A DNA stretch of 64,000 nucleotides. It comes from Patescibacteria group bacterium. Lineage in GTDB: Bacteria > Patescibacteriota > Patescibacteriia > Magasanikbacterales > GWA2-37-8. A program made the position numbers and the translations under genes. The stretch covers positions 572 to 64,571 of the forward strand of contig DATDYA010000008.1 in NCBI GenBank assembly GCA_035289165.1. The letters are read 5' to 3'. The notes beneath the pieces are model-generated. The model searched no databases, was not told the DNA's origin, and saw only the letters and a list, made by a program, of their open reading frames with translations. This document shows positions 2 through 13,005 of the stretch, piece by piece. Within the stretch, counting starts at the first letter, position 1. Each line of letters starts with the position of its first letter.

Positions 2-901
2 AAAGGCAAATTTAGCATTTTAGTTACCGGCAGTGCACGATTGGATGTGTATCGTCGAGGGGGAGATTCTTTATTGGGGCGTTATCATTATTTTCGTTTA
101 CACCCGTTTAGTGTTAGAGAAGTGATGGGTGAGGGTTGGCAGACCGAACCGTTTGATGAAATAAAATTTTTAAAAGACAAAAAGATAAGCCGGGCTTTTT
201 CTGATCTCCTCACTTATGGTGGATTTCCCGAACCGTATCTGGCGAAAAACCCTCAAACACTACGACGCTTTCACAATGAGCGCTCGGAACGTTTAATTAA
301 AGAGGATATACGAGATGTGGAAAATATTCAGGACATCTCATTGCTCCAAGTTTTATCAGATATATTACCTAGCAAAGTAGGATCTTTGTTGTCTCTAAAT
401 TCTTTGCAAGAAGACCTGGCGGTAACTCACAAAACGATTTCTCGTTGGGTGGATATGCTAGAGAGGTTTTACTACCATTTTAGAATTTATCCTTTTAAGT
501 CTAGTTTAATTAAGTCGTTACGAAAACAACCCAAGATGTATATGTGGGACTGGTCGCAGGTTGAAAATGAAGCTGCTCGGTTAGAAAATATGGTTGCCTC
601 TCACTTGCTTAAGACAGCGCACTTGCTTTATGATTATTTTGGTTTCAAAGCCGAGGTGTATTACTTACGTGATACCGAGGGGCGAGAAGTAGACTTTTTG
701 TTAACAGTAGATCGCAAGCCTTGGTTTAGCGTCGAAGTGAAACAAAACGACACCAGCCCCTCGTCCCACTTGAAATATTTTGGTGATAGGTTGAGAATTC
801 CTTTTCAATATCAAGTGGTCGGAGGCGGTACGGGAATAGATTATTTAAAAGACGGGATTAGGACAATGAGTGTAGATAAGTTCTTGTCCGGGCTAGCGTA
901 A
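2..901 (+). CDS. AAA+ ATPase with DUF4143 domain, C-terminal part; the 5' end lies outside the window (the in-frame ORF runs to base 2 before the annotated TTG at 41)
   Basis: The translation continues upstream in frame (KGKFSILVTGSARLDVYRRGGDSLLGRYHYFRLHPFS...). The ...TGSxxxD...LxGR...F.L.P motif block and C-terminal region parallel the full-length DUF4143 ATPase at 30516-31640. Confidence 0.6.
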   Translation, partial: KGKFSILVTGSARLDVYRRGGDSLLGRYHYFRLHPFSVREVMGEGWQTEPFDEIKFLKDKKISRAFSDLLTYGGFPEPYLAKNPQTLRRFHNERSERLIKEDIRDVENIQDISLLQVLSDILPSKVGSLLSLNSLQEDLAVTHKTISRWVDMLERFYYHFRIYPFKSSLIKSLRKQPKMYMWDWSQVENEAARLENMVASHLLKTAHLLYDYFGFKAEVYYLRDTEGREVDFLLTVDRKPWFSVEVKQNDTSPSSHLKYFGDRLRIPFQYQVVGGGTGIDYLKDGIRTMSVDKFLSGLA

Positions 902-3515: not shown

Positions 3516-5786
3516 TTACTCTTTGAACACCGTGCCACCCGCATCCAAAGTTTGTTCTTCGTCCGACAATTCGAAAGACGCAGTTGGCATCATGTGTTCA
3601 GTAAAAACTTCTCTCGGTTTAGCGCCATCAGCAGGTCCTACTATACCAGCTTCTTCTAATTCGTCAAGCAGTCTGGCCGCCCGGGCATAGCCCACCTTCA
3701 TCCGTCTTTGCATGAGCGAAGCGCTGGCTTTTCCTGATTCGATTACCAGTTGTTTAGCTTCATTGAAAAGCGGGTCTTGGTCGTCGCTGCCACCACCGAA
3801 CATGTTTAGCGTGCCGCCATTTCCCCCGCCCTTACTAACAACCGATTCGTTGTAATTAGGTTCAGCGTTACCCTTCAAAAAGTCAACAATTCGTTTCATT
3901 TCTTCTTCGGAAACATAGGCGCCTTGGATGCGTTTTGGTTTAGACAATTCAGCTGTTAAGAATAGCATGTCGCCGCGCCCCAAAAGTTTTTCCGCCCCCG
4001 GGCAATCCAAAATTGTACGGGAATCAATAAGCGAAGCGACTGAAAAAGCGATACGAGCCGGGATGTTCGCTTTCATGAGACCGGTGATAACTTCAACGCT
4101 CGGGCGTTGCGTCGCAACAATAAGGTGAATACCAACCGCCCGCGCCATCTGGGCAATGCGGATAATGCCAGCTTCAACTTCGCTGGCCGCCATTGCCATG
4201 AGGTCAGCTAGTTCGTCAATGACAAAAACAATGTATGGCATTTTTTCAGTAGCCGTTTTGTTGTAAGATTGGATGTCGCGCTTACCGGAAGCGGCGAGAA
4301 GATCAAAACGACGTTCCATTTCCCCGATTGTCCATTTCAAAGCGTTAACAGTTTTTGCTGGGTCAGTAATAACTGGTGTTAGAAGATGAGGGATGCCGTT
4401 GTAAAGAGTCAGTTCGACTCTTTTGGGGTCAACCATAATGACCCGCAAAGTTTCTGGAGTGTTTTGGTAAAGTAAGCTAAGTAAAATTGTATTAATACAA
4501 ACGGTTTTACCAGATCCCGTGGCGCCCGCAATTAAAAGATGCGGCATTTTGGAAAGCCTCCCAAACCAGACAGTACCGGCGACATCTTTTCCCAATGCCA
4601 CCTGCAAGGTGTCTTCGCGATCTTTAAACTCTGGGCTTTCCAAGAGTTCGCGTAAAGTAACCATCGCTACTTTTTGGTTTGGAACTTCAATGCCGACTAA
4701 AGATTGGCCAGGAATGGGGGCCTCAATGCGAATAGGGTGGGCCGCCAAAGCTAAAGCCAGGTCGTTGCTTAAGGCCAAGATGCGGGTTAGCTTAATACCC
4801 TTAGCTGGTTTTAAAGAAAATTGCGTTACAGTTGGGCCCACTCGAACTTCTCCCATATCCACTTCAATGCCAAAGTTTTGTAAGGTATCCCGAATAATCT
4901 CCGCGTTGCTTTTAATATCTCCAGACGATGGTTTGGTTTTTGAGGTAAAGAGAAGACTGGTGTCCGGTAAAGCGAATGAGCTGTAATCTGGTAGTGGTAA
5001 TTCTTCCAATTGGCCTTCCTTAGCCGTTTCTTCCGTCGGGCCTCCAGTCTCTAATTCAGTTTTTCTTTCCAAAGATTTTCGTTCAAAGGCTCGCCGTTCT
5101 TCTTCCTCCTCTTCTAATTTTACGGTTTCCCATTCTTCGGTTTCTTCACTTGGTGTTTCTTCATAATCCCCTTTAATCTTAAATTCTACCTTTTCTTCCT
5201 TTTTAAAACGGTAGAAGAAATTTACCAGCTGCTGTCCAAGAAAACCGAGTATGAGAAAGAACTTCTTGTTTAAAAGTACTAATTGCGCCAAAGAAGTGTT
5301 AAAAATGAAAATGATTGAGATTAAAAGTAGAGCAATAAATATAACCAGACTACCCCAGTAGCCGAGGTAAGTCCCTAGTGGCCAGGCTAAAGCGAGGCCA
5401 ACCAGTCCACCACCATAGCCCTGCATGGCTAAATCCACCATTTCTTCCACTGCATTTTGTAGATGGACAAGGCCGTTGAAACTCAAAAAGAAGAGTATTG
5501 AGCCAAAAAAATGGGTGGGGCGATACTCGTAACTCAAATCTTTTATGATTAGCCCGGCGACAATGGCCAGGATGATTGGAAAAAAGTAGCGGACTTGGCC
5601 AAAGCCAATTGCGAGGAGCGAATCAATGAAGTGGCCAGCAATTCCCGCTAAATTAAAGAAGCTAAGGATAGACAAACCAGCTACCACAAAGAGGAAAATA
5701 GATAAAAGACCCCTGCCGATTTCAGGGTTTAGATTAATGCGTTCCCGCAAAGGTGGTCGCCCGCGACGTGATCTCGACATAATCAT
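3516..5786 (-). CDS. ftsK: DNA translocase FtsK/SpoIIIE
   Basis: N-terminal polytopic membrane region, a charged linker, an ATPase core (GATGSGKT Walker A) and a C-terminal gamma domain (MQRRMKVGYARAARLLDELEEAGIVGP). The start is probably an internal Met, because the ORF's first codons overlap the promoter of the divergent gene. Confidence 0.9.
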   Translation of the reverse strand: MIMSRSRRGRPPLRERINLNPEIGRGLLSIFLFVVAGLSILSFFNLAGIAGHFIDSLLAIGFGQVRYFFPIILAIVAGLIIKDLSYEYRPTHFFGSILFFLSFNGLVHLQNAVEEMVDLAMQGYGGGLVGLALAWPLGTYLGYWGSLVIFIALLLISIIFIFNTSLAQLVLLNKKFFLILGFLGQQLVNFFYRFKKEEKVEFKIKGDYEETPSEETEEWETVKLEEEEEERRAFERKSLERKTELETGGPTEETAKEGQLEELPLPDYSSFALPDTSLLFTSKTKPSSGDIKSNAEIIRDTLQNFGIEVDMGEVRVGPTVTQFSLKPAKGIKLTRILALSNDLALALAAHPIRIEAPIPGQSLVGIEVPNQKVAMVTLRELLESPEFKDREDTLQVALGKDVAGTVWFGRLSKMPHLLIAGATGSGKTVCINTILLSLLYQNTPETLRVIMVDPKRVELTLYNGIPHLLTPVITDPAKTVNALKWTIGEMERRFDLLAASGKRDIQSYNKTATEKMPYIVFVIDELADLMAMAASEVEAGIIRIAQMARAVGIHLIVATQRPSVEVITGLMKANIPARIAFSVASLIDSRTILDCPGAEKLLGRGDMLFLTAELSKPKRIQGAYVSEEEMKRIVDFLKGNAEPNYNESVVSKGGGNGGTLNMFGGGSDDQDPLFNEAKQLVIESGKASASLMQRRMKVGYARAARLLDELEEAGIVGPADGAKPREVFTEHMMPTASFELSDEEQTLDAGGTVFKE

Positions 5787-5845
5787 TTTGTTACGAATAT
5801 TATAGCACAGAGGCGAAAGTCGGACAAATAAAAGAACTACAGAGG

Positions 5846-5874
5846 TTGCCAAAACTAACCGGATGGTATATAAT
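5846..5874 (+). promoter_or_regulatory. Sigma70-like promoter TTGCCA-17-TATAAT for the C39-like peptidase gene
   Basis: Near-consensus -35 and a perfect -10 with 17-bp spacing. It ends about 20 nt upstream of the ATG at 5895. Confidence 0.5.
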
Positions 5875-5894
5875 AGGCGCCCTTATGAAAAATT

Positions 5895-6359
5895 ATGGCT
5901 TTGCCGTACTACAAACAAGAGACCAATTATACCTGTGGTCCAGCCAGCTTTCGCATGGTTATGGCTTCTTTGGGTTTTATCTATGATGAAACAGAATTAA
6001 AAAAATTGTTAAAAACCAGCAAAATTTGGGGTACTTTGCACAAAAGCTTCGTGGAAGCGGCAGAAAAACATAAGCTTAACTATGTCGTAAAAAGAAATAC
6101 GGAAGTAAACGAATTGAGGAAAGCCTTAAGAAAAAAGAAGCTGGCGATTGTCTGTTATGCCATGCCACCACACGAAATATATCATTACGCAGTGGTAAAA
6201 AAGGTTGGTCTAAAATATATTTATTTGTTGGATCCCTTCCTTGGCCCGAATTGCCAGTATTTACTTACTGACTTTGTAAAATTTTGGAAAAGTGACCCCA
6301 AACACGAAGGTGATGAGAGATGGTTTTTCGCCATTGAAAATAACAAGGCCGTGAATTAA
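5895..6359 (+). CDS. Standalone papain-like cysteine peptidase, C39-like domain
   Basis: Q-x4-TCGPAS catalytic-Cys motif (QETNYTCGPASFRMV) and a downstream HYAVV His motif. 154 aa with no ABC-transporter fusion. Confidence 0.55.
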   Translation: MALPYYKQETNYTCGPASFRMVMASLGFIYDETELKKLLKTSKIWGTLHKSFVEAAEKHKLNYVVKRNTEVNELRKALRKKKLAIVCYAMPPHEIYHYAVVKKVGLKYIYLLDPFLGPNCQYLLTDFVKFWKSDPKHEGDERWFFAIENNKAVN

Positions 6360-6390
6360 AGCCGCCCCAAAGTTTAGGCGGCTTTTTTAA
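6359..6390 (+). terminator. Intrinsic terminator after the C39-like peptidase gene
   Basis: GCCGCC...GGCGGC stem with a 10-nt loop, followed by T6. Confidence 0.7.
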
Positions 6391-6449
6391 ATTGTCTTGA
6401 CCGGCACTCGTAGCGAGAATATAATTGAAACATTGTTATTAATTGTTTT

Positions 6450-6863
6450 ATGAGAGTAGGCATAAGCGGTTCCATGCAATTTACCGAAAAAATGATTGAA
6501 GTGAGGGACAATCTTCTGACCCTTGGTCATAATGCTTATGTTACTTCCTACGCCAAAGCCTTCGTTGGAAAAACTACTGAAGAAAAAGAGAGAATTAAGC
6601 TTGACCAAAAAAGAACCGATGATGTTATAAAAGAATACTGGGATTTAATGCAAGGAGGCGATGCGATTTTAGTTTTAAATTTTGAGAAACACAACATCCC
6701 CAATTACATCGGTGGGAATACTTTAATGGAAATCGGCTTTGCCCATGTTTTAGGACAGAAGATTTTTCTCTGGAATCCGATCCCCGACCAACCTTATTGT
6801 AAACATGAAATCGAATCGGTCCATCCGGTTGTTATTAATGGCGACCTATCCTTAGTTAAATAA
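6450..6863 (+). CDS. Nucleoside 2-deoxyribosyltransferase-like (PF05014-like) protein
   Basis: About 137 aa with an N-terminal GISGS Rossmann-like start. The C-terminal ILVLNFEKHNIPNYIGGNTLMEIGFAHVLGQKIFLW resembles the NDT family D.GT..E.G.A.A.GKPV block. Confidence 0.4.
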   Translation: MRVGISGSMQFTEKMIEVRDNLLTLGHNAYVTSYAKAFVGKTTEEKERIKLDQKRTDDVIKEYWDLMQGGDAILVLNFEKHNIPNYIGGNTLMEIGFAHVLGQKIFLWNPIPDQPYCKHEIESVHPVVINGDLSLVK

Positions 6864-6864
6864 T

Positions 6865-7350
6865 ATGGAGATGATGGATGTCGTAAACGATAAAGATGAA
6901 GTGGTGGGTCAGGTAGACAAGGAAGATGTTTACAAAAAATTATTATGTCACTGGATTGTTCACGTCCTAATTTTTAACGATGAAGGCAAGTTGGCTTTGC
7001 AATTACGCCATCCCAACCTTTCTTTCGCACCAAATCATTGGTCTACAACAGTTGGTGGGCATGTGCAAGCCGGTGAGAGTTACGAAGACGCCACGAAAAG
7101 AGAAATGAGAGAAGAAGTTGGCGTTGAAACACCAATAGAATATTTTTCTAAAGATTCTTATCACGCCCTTGGCCAGCCAGACAAATTTATTGTTTGTTAT
7201 AGAGCAAAATATAACGGGCCATTCCAGATGGAACCAGAAGCAGTAGTGGAAGTAGAATTTTTTACTATCGAAGAAATTAAATCAATGATTGAACAAGGAG
7301 AAAAATTTCATCCCGAACTGTTATTTATCTTAAAGAAATATTTTTTGTAA
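6865..7350 (+). CDS. NUDIX hydrolase
   Basis: Nudix box GGHVQAGESYEDATKREMREEVGV fits GX5EX7REUXEEXGU. Confidence 0.8.
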   Translation: MEMMDVVNDKDEVVGQVDKEDVYKKLLCHWIVHVLIFNDEGKLALQLRHPNLSFAPNHWSTTVGGHVQAGESYEDATKREMREEVGVETPIEYFSKDSYHALGQPDKFIVCYRAKYNGPFQMEPEAVVEVEFFTIEEIKSMIEQGEKFHPELLFILKKYFL

Positions 7351-7355
7351 AAAAT

Positions 7356-7390
7356 AACCCTCGATACAATGTCGAGGGTTTTTCTTTCCA
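7356..7390 (+). terminator. Intrinsic terminator after the NUDIX gene
   Basis: AACCCTCGA / TCGAGGGTT stem of 9 bp with a 7-nt loop, followed by a T-run. Confidence 0.7.
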
Positions 7391-7678
7391 CTAAGCTGCG
7401 TAAAGAGTTGCATGTTTTAGCCACGGATCAAATCTAAAAAACTTCGACTATAAACAAAAAAATGATTATAGAGGAGAGAGAATTGCTTTTTACAATCCGA
7501 TCCGGTTGAGACATCAACTCCACCGCAGCTTGTTGGAAAGAATGTGAAAACATTGTAAGGTGTAACACGAGTAGTGTCAAGTGTGGATAGATTGAGTCTA
7601 ACTTTTTATCATATAACATTGCAAAATTTAATATTATTCGGTATATTTATCAATAGTGATTAATTATTTTTTATCATT

Positions 7679-9241
7679 ATGCCAGTCGTAGAGTGGGGTC
7701 ATGATTTCGAACCTTATGAACAGGCGTCGGATTTTGAATTATTTAGGAAAACACCCAGTGAGCTTGCTCAAAAATTGAAGCAATTAGCCGATCGGGGCGA
7801 AGCAAGAGATTACCTAAGGCGAGCTTTTTTAGATCCGCGTAATATTGCGACGGTTAGCTATTATGAAAAATGGATGGTAAAGAAGGTTCAAGATATCATC
7901 GAAGAATTGGTTAAGGAAAAGGAGGAGGAATCTTGGGCACAGGGCGAACTGCCCGCCGGGTTAGCCGAAAGATATTCTGAAGAAGAACTAAAGCAATTAC
8001 TTTCTAGTTTGTTTTTTGTTCAACCTACCCAAGGCTGCGCCCACGCTTGTCCATTTTGCGCTTGGGATGCCCCTAAGGGAGTGAGGAGCACCATACCGTT
8101 TAATCAGTTTGCTAAACTAATGGAAAAGTACGGCGATGTTTTTAAAGATAATTGTATTGACTTGCACTTTGCTTCTGAGCCAGGTGATTATAAATACACG
8201 GATCCCGTAAGTGGTAAGGAGTATGATTATTCTGATTTACTATCCGTAGCCAAGAATTTTTTGAGCGGGACGGTCAATTCTTTTCTAACACGACGATCAG
8301 ATGATGAATGGCTCGAATATGTTGTCAAAGAAGGCGGTTTAAGAAGCCTGGATAACGCTACAAATCGTCGATTACAAAAACAAAAAACAAATGGGCGGGG
8401 CAGAGGTTTCAAAGGTGTTAAACATCACGCTGAAGGTGGGGACGAGAGGTTGCATACGCCAGGTATTGGTTTGAGTATTAAAAAAACAAGGAATTTAGTC
8501 GGTAAAGAGCGGGGTATTTATACACGAAAACCAGGTAGCATACTCACACCACGAGGTTATCTACATATTTTCCCCGGCGAGATACAAGATGTTTCACCGC
8601 AAGGACTAGTGGCTGTAGCAGTTGGGGAGTTGCACAGAATCGAAGAGGCCTATGAAAAATTAAAGCCGGGGGTCAAATTACAAGACGTAATGAGTGGTTT
8701 CGCAATTTATAAAATGTTTGACTTAAAACTCCTTCCCGATTTTAAACACGCTTTTGTAGCCTATACCGGGAACAGTAGTGACACCGGAATGGTTGTAGTA
8801 TATAGCCCGACCACTTATGAGATTACCGAGACGCATCCCTTTAAAATGACGTTAGATGAGTACAAAAAGAATTATCAATTATTGAAAAATAAATACTTTG
8901 AAGGCTATATGAAAGAGCCGATTTGGCCTGGAAAATATGAAGAAATTTTACCCGACATGGATTATAACCTGGCGATAGTCAAGCGGTTTTCTGACTTGTC
9001 AACAGATATGGGCTGGCTGACAATCGTTCAGAAGTATGTTCGCGAAAAAACTCAAGAGGTACACAGTATCATATTTTACAGGTTAAATCATGTGTTTAAA
9101 GCATATTTATTAACTGTTAAACCCAGTTTTACTAGTGATGTTATTGATTTGAATTGGCTGGAAAGGCAATTTTTAATCTTTTTGGGGTCGGACCAATTTA
9201 AAAAGATAGAAAAAGAAGGCTTTGTTCGAAAAAACTCTTAA
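7679..9241 (+). CDS. Hypothetical 520-aa protein with a radical-SAM-like CxxxCxxC motif
   Basis: TQGCAHACPFCAWD contains C-x3-C-x2-C. About 40 residues later, DLHFASEPGD resembles the SAM-binding GGEP motif. No other recognisable domain. Preceded by a 328-bp AT-rich spacer. Confidence 0.5.
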   Translation: MPVVEWGHDFEPYEQASDFELFRKTPSELAQKLKQLADRGEARDYLRRAFLDPRNIATVSYYEKWMVKKVQDIIEELVKEKEEESWAQGELPAGLAERYSEEELKQLLSSLFFVQPTQGCAHACPFCAWDAPKGVRSTIPFNQFAKLMEKYGDVFKDNCIDLHFASEPGDYKYTDPVSGKEYDYSDLLSVAKNFLSGTVNSFLTRRSDDEWLEYVVKEGGLRSLDNATNRRLQKQKTNGRGRGFKGVKHHAEGGDERLHTPGIGLSIKKTRNLVGKERGIYTRKPGSILTPRGYLHIFPGEIQDVSPQGLVAVAVGELHRIEEAYEKLKPGVKLQDVMSGFAIYKMFDLKLLPDFKHAFVAYTGNSSDTGMVVVYSPTTYEITETHPFKMTLDEYKKNYQLLKNKYFEGYMKEPIWPGKYEEILPDMDYNLAIVKRFSDLSTDMGWLTIVQKYVREKTQEVHSIIFYRLNHVFKAYLLTVKPSFTSDVIDLNWLERQFLIFLGSDQFKKIEKEGFVRKNS

Positions 9242-9261
9242 ACTTATCCACTGTTTTCCGG

Positions 9262-9290
9262 TTGACAAACCTCTTGGTTTTTAGTACTAT
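9262..9290 (+). promoter_or_regulatory. Sigma70-like promoter TTGACA-17-TACTAT upstream of rpoB
   Basis: Perfect -35, 17-bp spacer and a near-consensus -10. It begins 21 nt after the stop of the upstream gene and would give a leader of about 260 nt to the rpoB ATG at 9554. Confidence 0.5.
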
Positions 9291-9375
9291 TCTAGTACTT
9301 TGAAAACCAAGGCGTAAACAACCATTTTTTGGCTAGTTATAGCTAAAAGTCCGGTTGCGTCCAACCTCGCTTAGT

Positions 9376-9428
9376 GCAAGGTTTTACAAACATCGAGAAT
9401 AAATAGATGCGTACCTTGCTTTTTTTGG
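9376..9428 (+). promoter_or_regulatory. Attenuator-like hairpin plus U-run in the rpoB leader
   Basis: GCAAGGT...ACCTTGC inverted repeat with a roughly 30-nt loop, followed by T7. Further T-runs occur at 9471-9476 and 9499-9504. Confidence 0.3.
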
Positions 9429-9553
9429 CTAATCTTTAAGTAAAACTAATAAGCCCCATACCCAAGCGGCCTTTTTTGGTTTGTGGCTTTTGCCGGCTTT
9501 TTTAAAAAAATTAACTATTTTTTAAACTATTAACCTCTTAAAACGCACGTTTT

Positions 9554-12500
9554 ATGTCCATTTACAAGCACAAGCCGGTCTCAACCGACGCCCGCCGTTT
9601 CTTCACCGGCCGAGACAACGTTATGCCGTTGCCTGACTTGATTGAGCTCCAAAAGAACTCCTATGGTTGGTTCTTGAAGTTCGGGGTCAAAGAACTTTTT
9701 GAAGAAGTTTCCCCAATTACCGACTTCACCGGCCGCGATCTAGAACTTTATCTTGAAGATTACTATTTGGACGAACCACGTTTTGACGAAGTTGTTTGCC
9801 GTACTCGTAATATTACTTTCGAAGCCCCGCTTCGTATTACCGCTCGTTTGGTCAACAAGCGAACCGGTCAGTCTAAATCTCAAGAAATCTATTTGGGTGA
9901 AATCCCGGTTATGACCAACCGGGGTACTTTTATTGTTAACGGTATTGAGCGTGTTGTTGTATCTCAGCTTATTCGTAGTGCTGGTGCTTTCTTCACCGCC
10001 GAAAACGTTCGTGGTCGTCGTTACTATGGTGCCAAGATCATCCCGAATCGTGGAGCCTGGATCGAAATCGAAACGGACATGAATAACGTTTTGTGGGTAA
10101 AAGTAGATCGCAAAAGAAAAGTGGCTGCTACCTCTATCCTCCGTGCCTTTGGCTATGAGGGCGATGAAGAAATTAAAAAAATGTTTGAAGACGTTAATAC
10201 CAATCCTCACGTGGATTATGTTGACGCCACAATTAAAAAAGATTTGGCCAAGAGCCGCGACGAAGGTTTAATCGAGGTCTACAAGAGAATTCGTCCCGGG
10301 GATCTTGCGACAGCTGACAACGCCAAGAGTTTGATCGAAGCCATGTTCTTCAATTTCGAACGTTATGACCTTGGTCGTGTTGGTGTCTACAAATTCAACA
10401 CCAAATTTGACCTCGGTTACACTGAAGGAGATTTTGATCAAAAAGATAATCGAGTTTTAAGTCCAGAAAAATTATTACTTGTTTTAAAAGAAGTTGTCCG
10501 CTTGAACGTTACCCAAGAAGAACCAGATGATGTTGATCATCTTGGCAACCGCCGCGTTCGTTCAGTCGGTGAACTAGTCCAGAACCGTTTCCGTATTGGT
10601 TTAGCTCGCATGGAACGTATCATTAAAGATCGCATGAGTACTTATGACGTCGAGCAGTTAAGTCCTAATAAACTTATTAACGCCCGACCGGTGACGAGCG
10701 CGATCCGTGAATTCTTTATGAGTTCACAGTTGTCACAGTTCATGGACCAGACCAATCCTTTGTCTGAACTCGAACACAAACGCCGTTTGTCCGCTCTTGG
10801 CCCCGGTGGTTTGTCCCGCGACCGCGCCGGTTTCGAAGTGCGCGACGTGCACACGACACACTATGGTCGCATCTGTCCGATCGCTACCCCCGAAGGTCCA
10901 AACATTGGTTTGGTTAACCACCTAGCTAGTTATGCTCGGATCAACGAGTTTGGGTTTATCGAAACACCTTACCGTAAGATTTTGCGTGACGTAAACAACG
11001 ACCCAAAACTTTTGGTTGGTGAAATTTTACGCGGAGACATCGAGGGTATAAAAGATGGTGCCAAGATTACCGAAGAAGTGGCTAAGAAACTTGGTAAATC
11101 CACTTTAAAAACCATTCCGGTTAAACCCCGGATGACCAATGAAATTGTTTACTTAAATTCTTTTAAAGAAGAAAAAGTTATTACCGCCGCCGCTTCCACC
11201 AAGGTAGATCCGGATGGATATTTTGTTGACGAAACAATCGCCGCTCGCGTTAACGGTAAGGCCGGTGTCGCTAAAAGTGAAGATTTAGAATATTTGGATG
11301 TTGCCCCTCACCAAATTGTAAGCATCGCGACTGCTTGTATCCCTTTCCTCGAACATGATGACGCGACCCGCGCTCTCATGGGTACAAACATGCAACGTCA
11401 GGCCGTGCCGTGTATTAGTCCGGAACCACCATTGGTGGGAACCGGTGTTGAACGTGAAGCCGCTCTGTATACTGGCCACATCGTTATCGCGGATTGCGAC
11501 GGTGAAATCACTGAAGTCGATGGCAGTAAAATAGTTTTGACTGGCAAGAAAGGTGAAAAGTTTACTTACAATTTAAATAAGTTTATCCGCTCTAACTCTT
11601 CGACTTGTATCAACCAACACCCCAGTATTAATGTTGGCGACAAGATCAAGAAGGGACAGGTTTTGTCTGATGGTCCATCAGTCCGTGACGGTGAAATGGC
11701 TTTAGGCCGAAATGTTTTGGTCGGCTACATGGTCTGGGATGGCTTCAATTACGAAGACGCGGTTGTCATTTCCGAGCGCGTTGTGCAGAGAGATGCTTAC
11801 ACCTCCATCCACATTGAAGATTATAAAATAGATGTTCGTGAAACTAAACTGGGACCAGAAGTTGTGACTTCAGATATCCCGAATGTTAGTGAAGAAAAAT
11901 TAAAAAATTTGGACAGTGAAGGGGTTGTCCGCATTGGCGCTGAAGTAAAATCCGGCGACATTTTAGTTGGTAAGATTACTCCTAAAGGTGAGACGGAATT
12001 AAGCGCGGAAGAAAGATTGCTCCGCGCCATCTTTGGCGAGAAAGCTCGCGATGTGCGCGACTCCTCACTTTACTTAGAGCACGGTGAGCACGGAAAAGTA
12101 ATCGGCATTCAGATTTTCTCGGCTGAAGCGGGTGACAAATTAGAACCCGGGGTTATTAAACAAGTTCAGGTCACGGTCGCGGATATGCGCAAGGTCCAAG
12201 TTGGTGACAAAATGTCTGGTCGCCATGGTAACAAAGGTGTTATCTCTAAAGTAGTGCCGGTCGCTGACATGCCGTTCTTAGAAGATGGTACTCCACTCGA
12301 CATTATTTTGTCCCCACTCGGCGTTATCTCTCGTATGAACCTGGGTCAGCTTTTAGAAAACCATCTTGGTTTAGCCGCCAATGCTCTTGGTTACAAAGTA
12401 GCGACTCCGGTTTTGGATGGTATGAATGAAGAGCAGATTAAAACTGAATTAAAGAAAGCTGGTTTGCCAGATGGTGGCCAAGTCATCTTGTACGATGGAC

Positions 12501-12979
12501 GTACTGGTGAGGCTTTCGACAATCCCGTCACCATTGGTTACAACTACATGTTGAAGTTGAACCACATGGTTGAAGACAAGATTCACCAACGTTCCATCGG
12601 TCCCTACAGCTTGATCACCCAACAACCTTTGGGTGGTAAGGCGCAGTTTGGTGGCCAGAGGTTTGGTGAAATGGAAGTTTGGGCTTTGGAAGCCTATGGT
12701 GCCGCCCATACTTTGCAAGAAATGTTAACCATTAAATCCGACGATGTCCCTGGCCGCTCCAAAGCCTACGAAGCGATCATTAAAGGTGAGCAAGTTAGCC
12801 GGGTAAACATTCCTGAATCATTTAACGTCTTGGTCCGCGAACTTAAAGGTCTGGGCCTCGATGTCGAGTTACTTAGCCGTAGTGAGTCTGGCCAGTATTT
12901 GCCAACGGAAGAAGTAAAAAGAGCCAAAGCCGAATCTGAAGAATCGGCTCCGGTGGAAGCACCGGTTCAAGCCGAGTAA
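9554..12979 (+). CDS. rpoB: DNA-directed RNA polymerase subunit beta
   Basis: 1141 aa with conserved beta-subunit blocks (GEMEVWALEAYGAAH..., NMQRQAVP, rifampicin-region FFMSSQLSQFMDQTNPLSELEHKRRLSALGPGGL). Confidence 0.97.
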   Translation: MSIYKHKPVSTDARRFFTGRDNVMPLPDLIELQKNSYGWFLKFGVKELFEEVSPITDFTGRDLELYLEDYYLDEPRFDEVVCRTRNITFEAPLRITARLVNKRTGQSKSQEIYLGEIPVMTNRGTFIVNGIERVVVSQLIRSAGAFFTAENVRGRRYYGAKIIPNRGAWIEIETDMNNVLWVKVDRKRKVAATSILRAFGYEGDEEIKKMFEDVNTNPHVDYVDATIKKDLAKSRDEGLIEVYKRIRPGDLATADNAKSLIEAMFFNFERYDLGRVGVYKFNTKFDLGYTEGDFDQKDNRVLSPEKLLLVLKEVVRLNVTQEEPDDVDHLGNRRVRSVGELVQNRFRIGLARMERIIKDRMSTYDVEQLSPNKLINARPVTSAIREFFMSSQLSQFMDQTNPLSELEHKRRLSALGPGGLSRDRAGFEVRDVHTTHYGRICPIATPEGPNIGLVNHLASYARINEFGFIETPYRKILRDVNNDPKLLVGEILRGDIEGIKDGAKITEEVAKKLGKSTLKTIPVKPRMTNEIVYLNSFKEEKVITAAASTKVDPDGYFVDETIAARVNGKAGVAKSEDLEYLDVAPHQIVSIATACIPFLEHDDATRALMGTNMQRQAVPCISPEPPLVGTGVEREAALYTGHIVIADCDGEITEVDGSKIVLTGKKGEKFTYNLNKFIRSNSSTCINQHPSINVGDKIKKGQVLSDGPSVRDGEMALGRNVLVGYMVWDGFNYEDAVVISERVVQRDAYTSIHIEDYKIDVRETKLGPEVVTSDIPNVSEEKLKNLDSEGVVRIGAEVKSGDILVGKITPKGETELSAEERLLRAIFGEKARDVRDSSLYLEHGEHGKVIGIQIFSAEAGDKLEPGVIKQVQVTVADMRKVQVGDKMSGRHGNKGVISKVVPVADMPFLEDGTPLDIILSPLGVISRMNLGQLLENHLGLAANALGYKVATPVLDGMNEEQIKTELKKAGLPDGGQVILYDGRTGEAFDNPVTIGYNYMLKLNHMVEDKIHQRSIGPYSLITQQPLGGKAQFGGQRFGEMEVWALEAYGAAHTLQEMLTIKSDDVPGRSKAYEAIIKGEQVSRVNIPESFNVLVRELKGLGLDVELLSRSESGQYLPTEEVKRAKAESEESAPVEAPVQAE

Positions 12980-13005
12980 CGGCTTTCACTCACCTAAAAT
13001 AATAC

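Follow-up and report, generated by a model that had tools for sequence, protein, structure and literature searches.

A probable divergent radical SAM enzyme gene in a replaceable cassette next to rpoB, and a candidate small RNA, in a Patescibacteria genome

Organization of the locus

In the stretch of Patescibacteria DNA analysed here (64,000 nucleotides, called the window throughout), a gene for a 520-aa protein follows a non-coding spacer of 328 bp (7351-7678, ~35% GC), and the neighbouring genes code for a C39-like peptidase, a 137-aa protein, a NUDIX hydrolase and RpoB. The first-pass annotation had described the 520-aa ORF, a cysteine triad within it, an SEPGD element and the AT-rich spacer, and all of them were located where it had placed them (Table 1). 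The sequence GCAHACPFCAW corresponds to residues 119-129, with F126 at the aromatic position of the loop, and SEPGD to residues 166-170 (nucleotides 8174-8188), 39 residues past C127. The only cysteines of the protein are C120, C124, C127 and C159. The ORF begins with MPV(V/T)EW, a start that it has in common with its homologue P0002, and at the place equivalent to the candidate promoter of the enzyme gene the related locus L002 carries TTGATA-17-TATATT.

Table 1. Features of the enzyme gene, its cassette and the preceding spacer (nucleotide positions are those of the window)
Feature	Position	Strand	Basis or remark
Candidate ~195-nt structured small RNA: long irregular hairpin (7386-7542), then intrinsic terminator	7347..7545	(-)	Fold, terminator, conservation
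Candidate small-RNA promoter, TTGACA-17-TACAAT	7552..7580	(-)	11/12 consensus matches
Left junction of the variable cassette, GTGGATAGAT, inverted copy of the right-junction 10-mer	7583..7592	(+)	Similarity to L002 and L034 ends at ~7590
Candidate enzyme-gene promoter, TTGCAA-17-TATATT, within the variable cassette	7619..7647	(+)	Consensus scan, 9/12 matches
Probable divergent radical SAM enzyme gene, 520 aa	7679..9241	(+)	First possible ATG as start
Helical N-domain	aa 16-108 of 520
Abridged β/α core (predicted)	aa ~111-250 of 520
CX3CX(Phe)C loop C120, C124, F126, C127, predicted ligands of the SAM-binding [4Fe-4S] cluster	8036..8059	(+)	Sequence, family conservation
A165-S166-E-P-G-D170, putative counterpart of the GGE SAM-binding motif in this family	8171..8188	(+)	Conservation; GGE position inferred
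Conserved β-rich domain	aa ~260-345 of 520
TPRG (aa 290-293) and PQG (aa 307-309), family-specific, in the β-rich domain	8546..8605	(+)	Family conservation
Variable helical tail, fast-evolving	aa 346-520; 8714..9238	(+)	Identity, family conservation, pLDDT
Right junction of the variable cassette, GTGGATAAGT	9242..9251	(-)	Similarity to L002 and L034 resumes at 9242

Evidence for a divergent radical SAM enzyme

The protein had been considered an orphan, a description that had to be abandoned, as a phmmer search of 1.84 billion cluster representatives gave matches to 190 of them, 87 at <=1e-10, covering residues ~15-345. These relatives are easily overlooked; a word-indexed homologue search, with either the single protein or a profile of 61 sequences, recovered one relative only and the exhaustive search was needed. 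In the 61 aligned sequences C120, C124, C127, D130, A165, S166, G264, G293 and P307 are invariant, P168, D170, Y171, P291, R292, Q308 and G309 are conserved in at least 90% of the relatives, as is S223, and KGIG is conserved at 262-265. CxxxCxxC is retained by 87 of the 89 top-ranking cluster representatives and, given the invariance of the triad as well, exceeds what chance would give; [AS]S[ED]P is found in 75 of 89. The signature [TS]PRG appears in 79 of the 89 family representatives and in only 11 of 62 more distant radical SAM matches. ASEP would occupy the position of GGE, after the second strand, and, judging from the order along the sequence, S223 and KGIG may correspond to the ribose and GxIxGxxE motifs.

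Searches with PF04055 and with SPASM/twitch models, as well as a structure prediction, had been proposed as checks. PF04055 matched 47 of the 61 relatives at E<0.01 (best 6e-10) and the window protein itself gave 15.7 bits (E 0.017), under the gathering score of 29.5 bits, so that its homology to this Pfam family is transitive and not direct. Direct searches of Pfam, NCBIfam and the PDB sequences with the window protein produced sub-threshold matches only, and the family profile found nothing relevant among PDB sequences. Neither a SPASM nor a twitch model (Pfam, NCBIfam) matched the window protein, in which no cysteine is left for an auxiliary cluster.

The AF2 model of the core (pLDDT 86) places C120, C124, F126 and C127 in a loop after strand 111-114, the first strand of the core, which is predicted to be an abridged partial (β/α) TIM barrel of ~4-5 β/α units with the radical SAM fold. 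A Foldseek comparison with the PDB gave no significant match. The part following the motif had been counted as 350 residues of unknown function, which was overstated: ~120 of them complete the abridged barrel and ~90 form the β-rich domain with TPRG and PQG, conserved across the family, and only the last ~175 residues are variable. This tail has 28% identity to P0002, compared with 70% in the N-domain, shows no conservation across the family and a pLDDT of 39-76, and is ~90 residues longer in the clade to which the window protein belongs.

The abridged core with its ~4-5 units, the sub-threshold Pfam score and the fast evolution of the gene could also be expected of a degenerate relic, a non-catalytic protein with no SAM chemistry whose triad would hold a structural metal or cluster. 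We consider this very unlikely, since the conserved positions are exactly those predicted to line the SAM site (the cysteine triad with its aromatic residue, ASEP, S223 and the KGIG region) and the same sequence was found 100% identical in at least seven assemblies. Besides, the structure of BtrN has an abridged barrel that is compatible with full activity. The invariant triad and ASEP, the PF04055 matches in most relatives and the predicted core fold bear out the earlier proposal of a divergent radical SAM family and, as far as identity alone is concerned, ORF 7679-9241 very probably codes for a radical SAM enzyme.

A peptide-linked family and its possible chemistry

Patescibacteria (CPR bacteria) have tiny genomes with few recognisable biosynthetic enzymes. 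The enzyme family, which is uncharacterised (literature searches found no description of it), is present mainly in this group, to which 15 of the 22 genome records with a relative are assigned by their titles. With an HMM built from 11 small ORFs that align and that lie directly upstream of enzyme genes, a conserved gene for a Lys-rich peptide of 45-53 aa was detected immediately before the enzyme gene at 15 of 23 loci, about two thirds, and the enzyme gene overlaps it there. This peptide, for which Pfam gave no match, is the sole neighbour family that recurs across the 22 loci, and where both genes are linked it is the likely substrate of the enzyme. A fourth cysteine (GIGC) is found in 44 of the 61 members, at 13 of the 15 peptide-linked loci versus 3 of the 8 others; no cysteine beyond the triad is invariant. 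The equivalent position is R283 in the window protein, also Arg in P0002, and the cysteine is absent from the whole window clade. The HMM found no gene for the Lys-rich peptide in the 64-kb window, nor did the window yield any other precursor peptide, any leader-type ORF or any dedicated transporter. The window clade appears to have lost both the peptide gene and the fourth cysteine.

The only curated relatives of the family are the PoyD-type RiPP epimerases, and the relationship is a distant one. TIGR04517 (PoyD) matches 56 of the 61 members, colinear over profile positions 57-264 and starting ~60 residues ahead of the cysteine motif (best 8.5e-11), and the more distant phmmer matches also fit only this model; its cut-off of 325 bits is missed by the window protein (11.1 bits) and by the best of the family (41 bits). 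As in the PoyD/OspD-type epimerases of proteusin pathways, an N-terminal extension of ~110 residues precedes CX3CX2C and there is no SPASM domain, and many members of the family have a co-encoded peptide and an extra cysteine that might be a hydrogen donor. However, the core of our family is abridged and followed by the TPRG/PQG β-rich domain, the partner is a helical Lys-rich peptide of 45-53 aa instead of an NHLP or Nif11 proteusin precursor, and the window protein has neither the candidate donor cysteine nor the partner peptide. PoyD homologues contain one strictly conserved extra cysteine, C372, that is the hydrogen-atom donor (PMC8326336), and among the 61 members no strictly conserved cysteine of this kind was found outside the triad. 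No proteusin-type (NHLP/Nif11) precursor gene was found among the neighbours within 2 kb.

BtrN (2-deoxy-scyllo-inosamine dehydrogenase, PDB 4m7s), with 11% sequence identity to the window protein, acts on an aminoglycoside precursor and has an auxiliary [4Fe-4S] cluster in a twitch domain, whereas the window protein has no auxiliary cysteines, is extended by further domains at both termini and counts peptide-linked proteins among its relatives. The peptide-modifying radical SAM maturases SkfB, SuiB, ChlB and EpeE/YydG have SPASM/twitch auxiliary clusters and/or an RRE domain, again unlike the window protein with its lack of auxiliary-cluster cysteines.

In the chemistry that we propose, the three cysteines would hold a [4Fe-4S] cluster, SAM would be reductively cleaved and the 5'-deoxyadenosyl radical would abstract a hydrogen atom from a substrate that is a peptide or protein. 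For most of the family, the peptide-linked members, this substrate would be the co-encoded peptide, and the fourth cysteine (GIGC) may serve as the hydrogen-atom donor, by comparison with radical SAM epimerases. Because the peptide gene is missing from the window clade, its substrate would be encoded elsewhere or be the tail of the enzyme itself. That the window protein acts on a peptide or protein has slightly less than even odds, and we propose it tentatively, by extension from its relatives. Residues 391-407 of the enzyme resemble the peptide (5.9 bits, a score reached by 0 of 1000 shuffles), but the segments that match differ in L002 and L005, while L006 and L008 have no such segment, and for this reason the likeness is kept only as a lead.

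Alternatively, the substrate could be a small molecule, such as a nucleotide or cofactor, or a nucleic acid such as tRNA or rRNA. Weak matches to MiaB/RimO models point in this direction, together with the upstream neighbours (the NUDIX hydrolase and the 137-aa protein, the latter without a Pfam match) and the missing partner peptide of the window clade. Nevertheless, these neighbours are unchanged where an unrelated gene takes the place of the enzyme (L034) or where that place is empty (L026), which argues against a functional coupling, the one neighbour family that does recur is the small peptide, and the only curated sequence relative is a family of peptide epimerases, so that we regard such a substrate as rather unlikely. 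With a peptide or protein substrate as the preferred reading, a widespread family, mainly of Patescibacteria and usually paired with a conserved small peptide, suggests a kind of peptide or protein modification that has yet to be described. Even if this were merely another uncharacterised radical SAM protein, what was an orphan is replaced by a family with defined motifs and a probable substrate.

A replaceable cassette next to rpoB

The enzyme gene and its candidate promoter form a replaceable cassette (7591-9241). Similarity to L002 and L034 resumes immediately past the stop codon of the enzyme, and the cassette is flanked by two conserved, outward-facing units, the minus-strand candidate small RNA on one side and the rpoB promoter with its leader on the other. 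The 10-mers at both junctions fit the pattern GTGGATARRT, which has no other match in the 64 kb and was derived from these same two sites. Synteny and both conserved blocks persist in L034, whose slot is nonetheless taken by an unrelated 425-aa gene. The C39-like peptidase gene, located 1.3 kb upstream with two unrelated genes between, also stays in L034 despite the replacement of the enzyme. In a sister lineage the syntenic allele has only ~48-49% amino acid identity and synonymous sites are saturated (pS 0.78), while the flanking genes have a dS of 0.35-0.58 and a dN/dS of 0.02-0.11. The window allele is about equally close to an Uhrbacteria homologue from an unrelated context (48.4% identity) and to the syntenic allele (47.8%). 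Positive selection as the sole cause of the divergence was ruled out by the saturation of the synonymous sites, which is not shared by the flanks. The locus provides a clean natural case of cassette replacement beside an essential gene, rpoB.

Among close relatives the slot holds two alleles of 48% identity, an unrelated HExxH-containing protein or nothing, and in L001 an AbiEi-like gene is found in place of the C39 peptidase gene. Such variability might be that of a strain-variable hotspot for a conflict or defence effector, giving a toxic or antiviral product as in prokaryotic viperins and exchanged under diversifying pressure. However, PADLOC found no match for four members of the family, a search of 2.9 million viral contigs gave no relative, the gene stands single without sensor or partner, and other CPR lineages place the family in many unrelated, housekeeping-like contexts. 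A defence role is on these grounds quite improbable, and we keep the reading of an enzyme from a peptide-linked family in an exchangeable slot. A bolder version of it would hold that the enzymes with their translationally coupled Lys-rich peptide of 45-53 aa are a new minimal class of radical SAM modification of peptides or small proteins (abridged barrel plus a new TPRG/PQG domain, with the partner lost or absorbed into the tail in the window clade) and that 7591-9241 is, at the same time, a dedicated gene-swap slot between the small RNA and the rpoB promoter, in which close lineages trade unrelated cassettes through site-directed exchange at the inverted 10-mers (GTGGATARRT); we judge this combination unlikely.

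A candidate small RNA in the spacer

An inverted repeat, AAGCTGCG / CGCAGCTT, had been noted in the spacer. It is real and forms the central part of a longer inverted repeat, whose arms of 19 nt each (7382-7400 and 7524-7542, 89% complementary) close a hairpin of ~155 nt. For either strand the folding energy of this hairpin is better than that of 200 out of 200 shuffles (z -5.2 and -5.9, the latter for the minus-strand fold). On the minus strand a terminator follows, with its stem at 7380-7356 and a U tract to ~7347. Both hexamers of the candidate small-RNA promoter are identical in L034, and the 17-nt spacer between them has 7 changes at constant length. The block is 100% identical to that of the L002 lineage and 89% to L034, with neighbouring genes at 70-90%. 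None of the 65 consensus pairs is broken and each of the 4 one-sided changes is an AU/GU or GC/GU exchange on the minus strand, in a comparison of two distinct sequences only and with no double compensatory changes.

The first-pass annotation had offered a structured RNA or an operator as explanations of the spacer, of which the first is supported and the second is not, the block being probably neither leader nor operator of the enzyme gene. The repeat is assigned to a putative independent transcription unit of the minus strand and not to the enzyme gene, and it is kept even where an unrelated gene replaces the enzyme (L034). It could still be an element at the DNA level, for example a repeat of palindromic or MITE-like type or a site of recombination, or else the 5' leader of the enzyme gene on the plus strand, considering that it folds well on both strands, that its right edge lies at the cassette junction with the inverted 10-mer pair and that the few sequences show no double compensatory covariation. 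We find this somewhat unlikely: the minus-strand -35 and -10 hexamers are kept around a variable spacer of 17 nt, the terminator comes after the hairpin on the minus strand and before it on the plus strand, on the minus strand the four stem substitutions are without exception wobble-neutral, with a consensus energy of -70.1 kcal/mol versus -60.9 on the plus strand, and the candidate plus-strand promoters are downstream of the hairpin. A MITE or other repeat in particular was rejected, as no second copy turned up in the 64-kb window or among the loci that were retrieved. The small RNA is the reading that we retain, and to the explanation as a whole, a functional divergent radical SAM enzyme of a peptide-linked family, encoded in a replaceable cassette and accompanied by a separate small RNA, we assign a probability of about 0.6.

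Gene callers annotate a minus-strand ORF of 61 aa at 7434-7619, which we rejected as coding because it starts within the cassette, where conservation is lacking, the candidate promoter of the small RNA is inside it and only 29 codons are left in L034. A 6S RNA was discarded since a large central bubble is missing from the predicted fold. The viral contigs contained no copy of the spacer block, and literature searches found no description of this RNA or of small RNAs in Patescibacteria (CPR bacteria), for which the locus offers a candidate that extends from promoter to terminator.

Some trans-acting bacterial small RNAs are transcribed from their own promoter up to a Rho-independent terminator and carry a pyrimidine-rich loop. 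The candidate matches 0 of the 4227 families of Rfam 15 at the gathering score, and at E<=10 gives terminator-like partial matches only. It would resemble the trans-acting RNAs in being a stand-alone unit of ~195 nt that runs from a strong sigma-70-type promoter to an intrinsic terminator, an analogy taken as a lead only. In its predicted fold a CU-rich stretch, AAUUCUCUCUCCUC, stays unpaired and could base-pair with sequences of the Shine-Dalgarno type.

Identity of the radical SAM protein and its family

The first-pass annotation had taken this 520-aa protein for an orphan with a radical SAM cysteine triad and an SEPGD element, preceded by a long spacer. The ORF, both motifs and the spacer were all correctly placed (see the table). 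The orphan status was refuted. A word-indexed search returned a single relative, P0002 (532 aa, 48% identity), and HMMER comparison with 1.84 billion cluster representatives recovered 190 proteins at E<=0.001, of which 87 reached <=1e-10 and 21 reached <=1e-30; they align to residues ~15-345 of the window protein with about 30% identity. The proposed PF04055 search held for the family but not for the protein itself: 47 of 61 relatives matched (best 6e-10), while the window protein alone stayed below the threshold (15.7 bits, cut-off 29.5). These matches, together with the motif and the predicted fold, uphold the suggestion of a divergent radical SAM enzyme family. The sole curated family matching most members was TIGR04517 (PoyD-type RiPP amino-acid epimerases; 56/61, best 8.5e-11). 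The aligned stretch runs colinearly through profile positions ~57-264 and thus takes in part of the N-terminal extension, and TIGR04517 was again the one model matched, weakly, by the more distant phmmer matches. The enzyme nevertheless falls outside the PoyD-type epimerases on score, on the conserved donor cysteine and on the proteusin precursor.

An AlphaFold model that drew on the alignment of 61 sequences (pLDDT 81, pTM 0.78) contained, in agreement with the first expectation, a beta/alpha core of about 4-5 units, whose nearest structural likeness is the abridged barrel of BtrN. In this predicted fold C120, C124 and C127 lie within a single 8-residue loop after strand 1, the same arrangement as in all members of the radical SAM superfamily. 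Besides the triad the window protein contains a single cysteine (four in all: 120, 124, 127, 159), so no SPASM or twitch auxiliary cluster is present. By motif and fold tests the window protein is very probably a radical SAM enzyme, with a function that we infer from its relatives.

Positions P92, Q115, C120, C124, C127, D130, A165, S166, G264, G293 and P307 are invariant in the 61-member alignment, and the motifs conserved in >=90% of the members include SYWEKW (N-domain), LTFGCSxGCPFCGFD, LYWASEPSDY, TPRG and PQG. The cysteine motif (CxxxCxxC) is kept in 87 of the 89 top-scoring representatives. TPRG can be considered a family marker, since [TS]PRG appears in 79/89 of these representatives and in only 11/62 of the weaker, more distant radical SAM matches. 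A genome scan for the family gave 22 loci, 15 of them titled as Patescibacteria/CPR lineages (Uhrbacteria, Komeilibacteria, Paceibacterota, Peribacteria, Peregrinibacteria, Kerfeldbacteria, Staskawiczbacteria, Saccharibacteria and others). The rest had generic titles or automated "Gammaproteobacteria" or "Bdellovibrionales" labels; the non-CPR labels are doubtful because locus L004, among those carrying them, belongs to the sister lineage of the window. NCBI assigns the NUDIX neighbor in the window to a Patescibacteria group bacterium. Literature searches found no papers on the enzyme family. The superfamily is already known; what is undescribed is the architecture of helical N-domain, abridged core and TPRG/PQG domain, the pairing with a lysine-rich peptide and the occurrence mainly in CPR lineages.

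Features of the enzyme locus, and examples of partner peptide genes in other genome loci (L handles, own coordinates)
Feature	Position	Strand	Remarks
Enzyme ORF	7679-9241	+	520 residues
GCAHACPFCAW	residues 119-129		C120, C124, C127 at nt 8036-8059
SEPGD	residues 166-170
Helical N-domain	aa 16-108		AlphaFold model
Beta/alpha core	aa 111-~250		AlphaFold model
Beta-rich domain	aa ~286-391		AlphaFold model
C-terminal tail			AlphaFold model; helical, low confidence
Spacer	7351-7678		328 bp, about 35% GC
Inverted repeat	7382-7400 / 7524-7542		19-nt arms, 89% complementary
Bidirectional intrinsic terminator	7356-7380
Candidate sRNA promoter	7580-7552	-	TTGACA-17-TACAAT, 11/12 matches
Left junction 10-mer	7583-7592	+	GTGGATAGAT
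Right junction 10-mer	9242-9251	-	GTGGATAAGT, inverted relative to left
Lys-rich peptide gene, L010	1267-1428
Lys-rich peptide gene, L015	5778-5936
Lys-rich peptide gene, L016	9805-9942
Lys-rich peptide gene, L024	9775-9924
Lys-rich peptide gene, L025	9775-9930

A lysine-rich peptide encoded next to related enzymes

We compared the neighborhoods of the 22 genome loci and the window (23 loci). The single recurrent neighbor family was a lysine-rich ORF of 45-53 aa, located immediately upstream on the same strand and overlapping the longest ORF of the enzyme by 4-29 nt. Eleven of these peptides, which are probably helical, align with the consensus ..KKKI.KI+.LVQ.RKSL..EL..LD.YQKKIEKVRKKY..GK[ST]. 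The derived HMM hit directly upstream of the enzyme gene in 15 of the 23 loci, with no significant match elsewhere in them and nothing across the 64-kb window; the peptide had no Pfam match. A fourth cysteine, in a GIGC motif beside TPRG, was found in 44/61 members, and in 13 of the 15 peptide-linked loci versus 3 of the 8 others. In radical SAM peptide epimerases one conserved extra cysteine (C372 in PoyD, and the corresponding residue in YydG) is the hydrogen-atom donor (PMC8326336). The window clade (the window and loci L002, L005, L006 and L008) has neither the peptide nor the GIGC cysteine, and the proteins from peptide-less loci exceed those from peptide-linked loci by about 90 residues (median 530 vs 440 aa). 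Judging from the relatives, enzymes of this family would first cleave SAM and then abstract a hydrogen atom from the peptide encoded beside them, and epimerisation of this peptide may be the outcome. The start of the tail in the window protein, TLDEYKKNYQLLKNKYF (aa 391-407, nt 8849-8899), bears a weak likeness to the C-terminal half of the partner peptide (5.9 bits, reached by 0/1000 shuffles), which we consider a lead only because the signal is inconsistent among sister proteins.

Replacement of the enzyme cassette

Compared with the syntenic close relative L002, the flanking DNA is 87-91% identical and the segment 7586-9240 only about 55%. Flanking genes gave dS of 0.35-0.58 and dN/dS of 0.02-0.11, versus a saturated pS of 0.78, dN of 0.475 and 49% amino acid identity for the enzyme gene. 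By region, identity to P0002 fell from 70% in the N-domain through 52% (core) and 48% (beta domain) to 28% in the tail. The syntenic allele shares 47.8% identity with the window allele, no more than does a Uhrbacteria homologue whose genomic context is unrelated (48.4%), so the enzyme alleles are much older than the genome around them, indicating cassette replacement by recombination and not fast divergence in place.

The more distant relative L034 (NUDIX 79% identical to that of the window) keeps the gene order whole (SOD/RecA/HTH/FtsK/C39/139-aa/NUDIX ... rpoB), and its DNA similarity stops exactly at 7590 and resumes at 9242. The gene in its slot (6788-8065 of L034) codes for an unrelated 425-aa protein with a HEFFH (HExxH-type) motif, which had no tblastn match to the enzyme, gave an hhalign probability of 0.1 when compared with the family and belongs to no Pfam family. 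At loci L026, L040 and L041 another gene, peptidase-E-type-like on inspection, directly follows NUDIX, and neither the conserved block nor the enzyme gene is present. The junction 10-mers are the sole two matches in 64 kb to a pattern derived from these very sites, and they are kept in all three lineages, which carry three different cassettes. They could be recombination sites, or upstream elements common to two outward-facing promoters.

To the right of the slot, the rpoB promoter (TTGACA at 9262, 17-nt spacer, TACTAT ending at 9290) is followed by a 5' leader about 255 nt long. Promoter and leader (9242-9553) are 98% identical to L002 and 87% to L034 (about 97% in the center, 9296-9440), more conserved than the neighboring genes on the upstream side of the slot (70-77% identical to L034) and, versus L002, than rpoB itself. 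This block had no Rfam match and, taken as a whole, it folds with no unusual stability (z -0.7).

A candidate small RNA, conserved, in the spacer

The block 7346-7590 is identical to L002 at 243/243 sites, while other intergenic and coding DNA differs by ~10%; by our own calculation, 243 sites would all stay unchanged at 10% divergence with a probability of about 1e-11. In L034 both hexamers of the candidate sRNA promoter are unchanged, and the spacer that separates them keeps its 17 nt despite 7 substitutions, as would be expected if the promoter is in use. The minus-strand RNA (about 7545-7347) is predicted to form a long, irregular hairpin that is followed by the terminator (fold z -5.9), and the inverted repeat noticed initially is real, being the core of the 19-nt arms. 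A comparison of two distinct sequences and a partial third was consistent with the structure: 0/65 pairs of the window/L034 consensus are broken, the four stem substitutions are all AU/GU or GC/GU on the minus strand and the rest fall in loops or bulges. Consensus energy was -70.1 kcal/mol for the minus strand versus -60.9 for the plus strand, whose center must refold. The spacer had been proposed as a structured RNA or an operator; the structured RNA stood, but not as a specific regulator of the enzyme gene, since it is kept in L034, whose slot is occupied by a gene unrelated to the enzyme. Its apical region appears to expose AAUUCUCUCUCCUC, a stretch that might base-pair with Shine-Dalgarno-like sequences. 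The RNA had no Rfam match, a search for a second copy found none, and literature searches returned no papers on it. A 61-aa ORF (7434-7619, minus strand) annotated by gene callers in public assemblies is probably spurious: it is not conserved, being shorter in both L002 (48 codons) and L034 (29 codons), it starts in the non-conserved cassette and it contains the candidate sRNA promoter.

Other variation in the region

The lineages L026, L033 and L040 lack the C39-like peptidase gene (5895-6359; stand-alone, 154 aa, PF03412, PF13529, PF11814), and in locus L001 an AbiEi-like gene and a 119-aa gene take its place, which makes the ftsK-NUDIX region a second variable spot. Between this peptidase and NUDIX, the gene for a 137-aa protein (6450-6863) with no Pfam, NCBIfam or PADLOC match is kept, in the same position, in every related lineage examined. 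Positions 5000-13000 of the window are 100% identical over up to 8 kb to loci L036-L039 and L042-L044. At least seven assemblies (ENA, JGI and Logan samples) carry this sequence, indicating one clonal population that has been repeatedly sampled.
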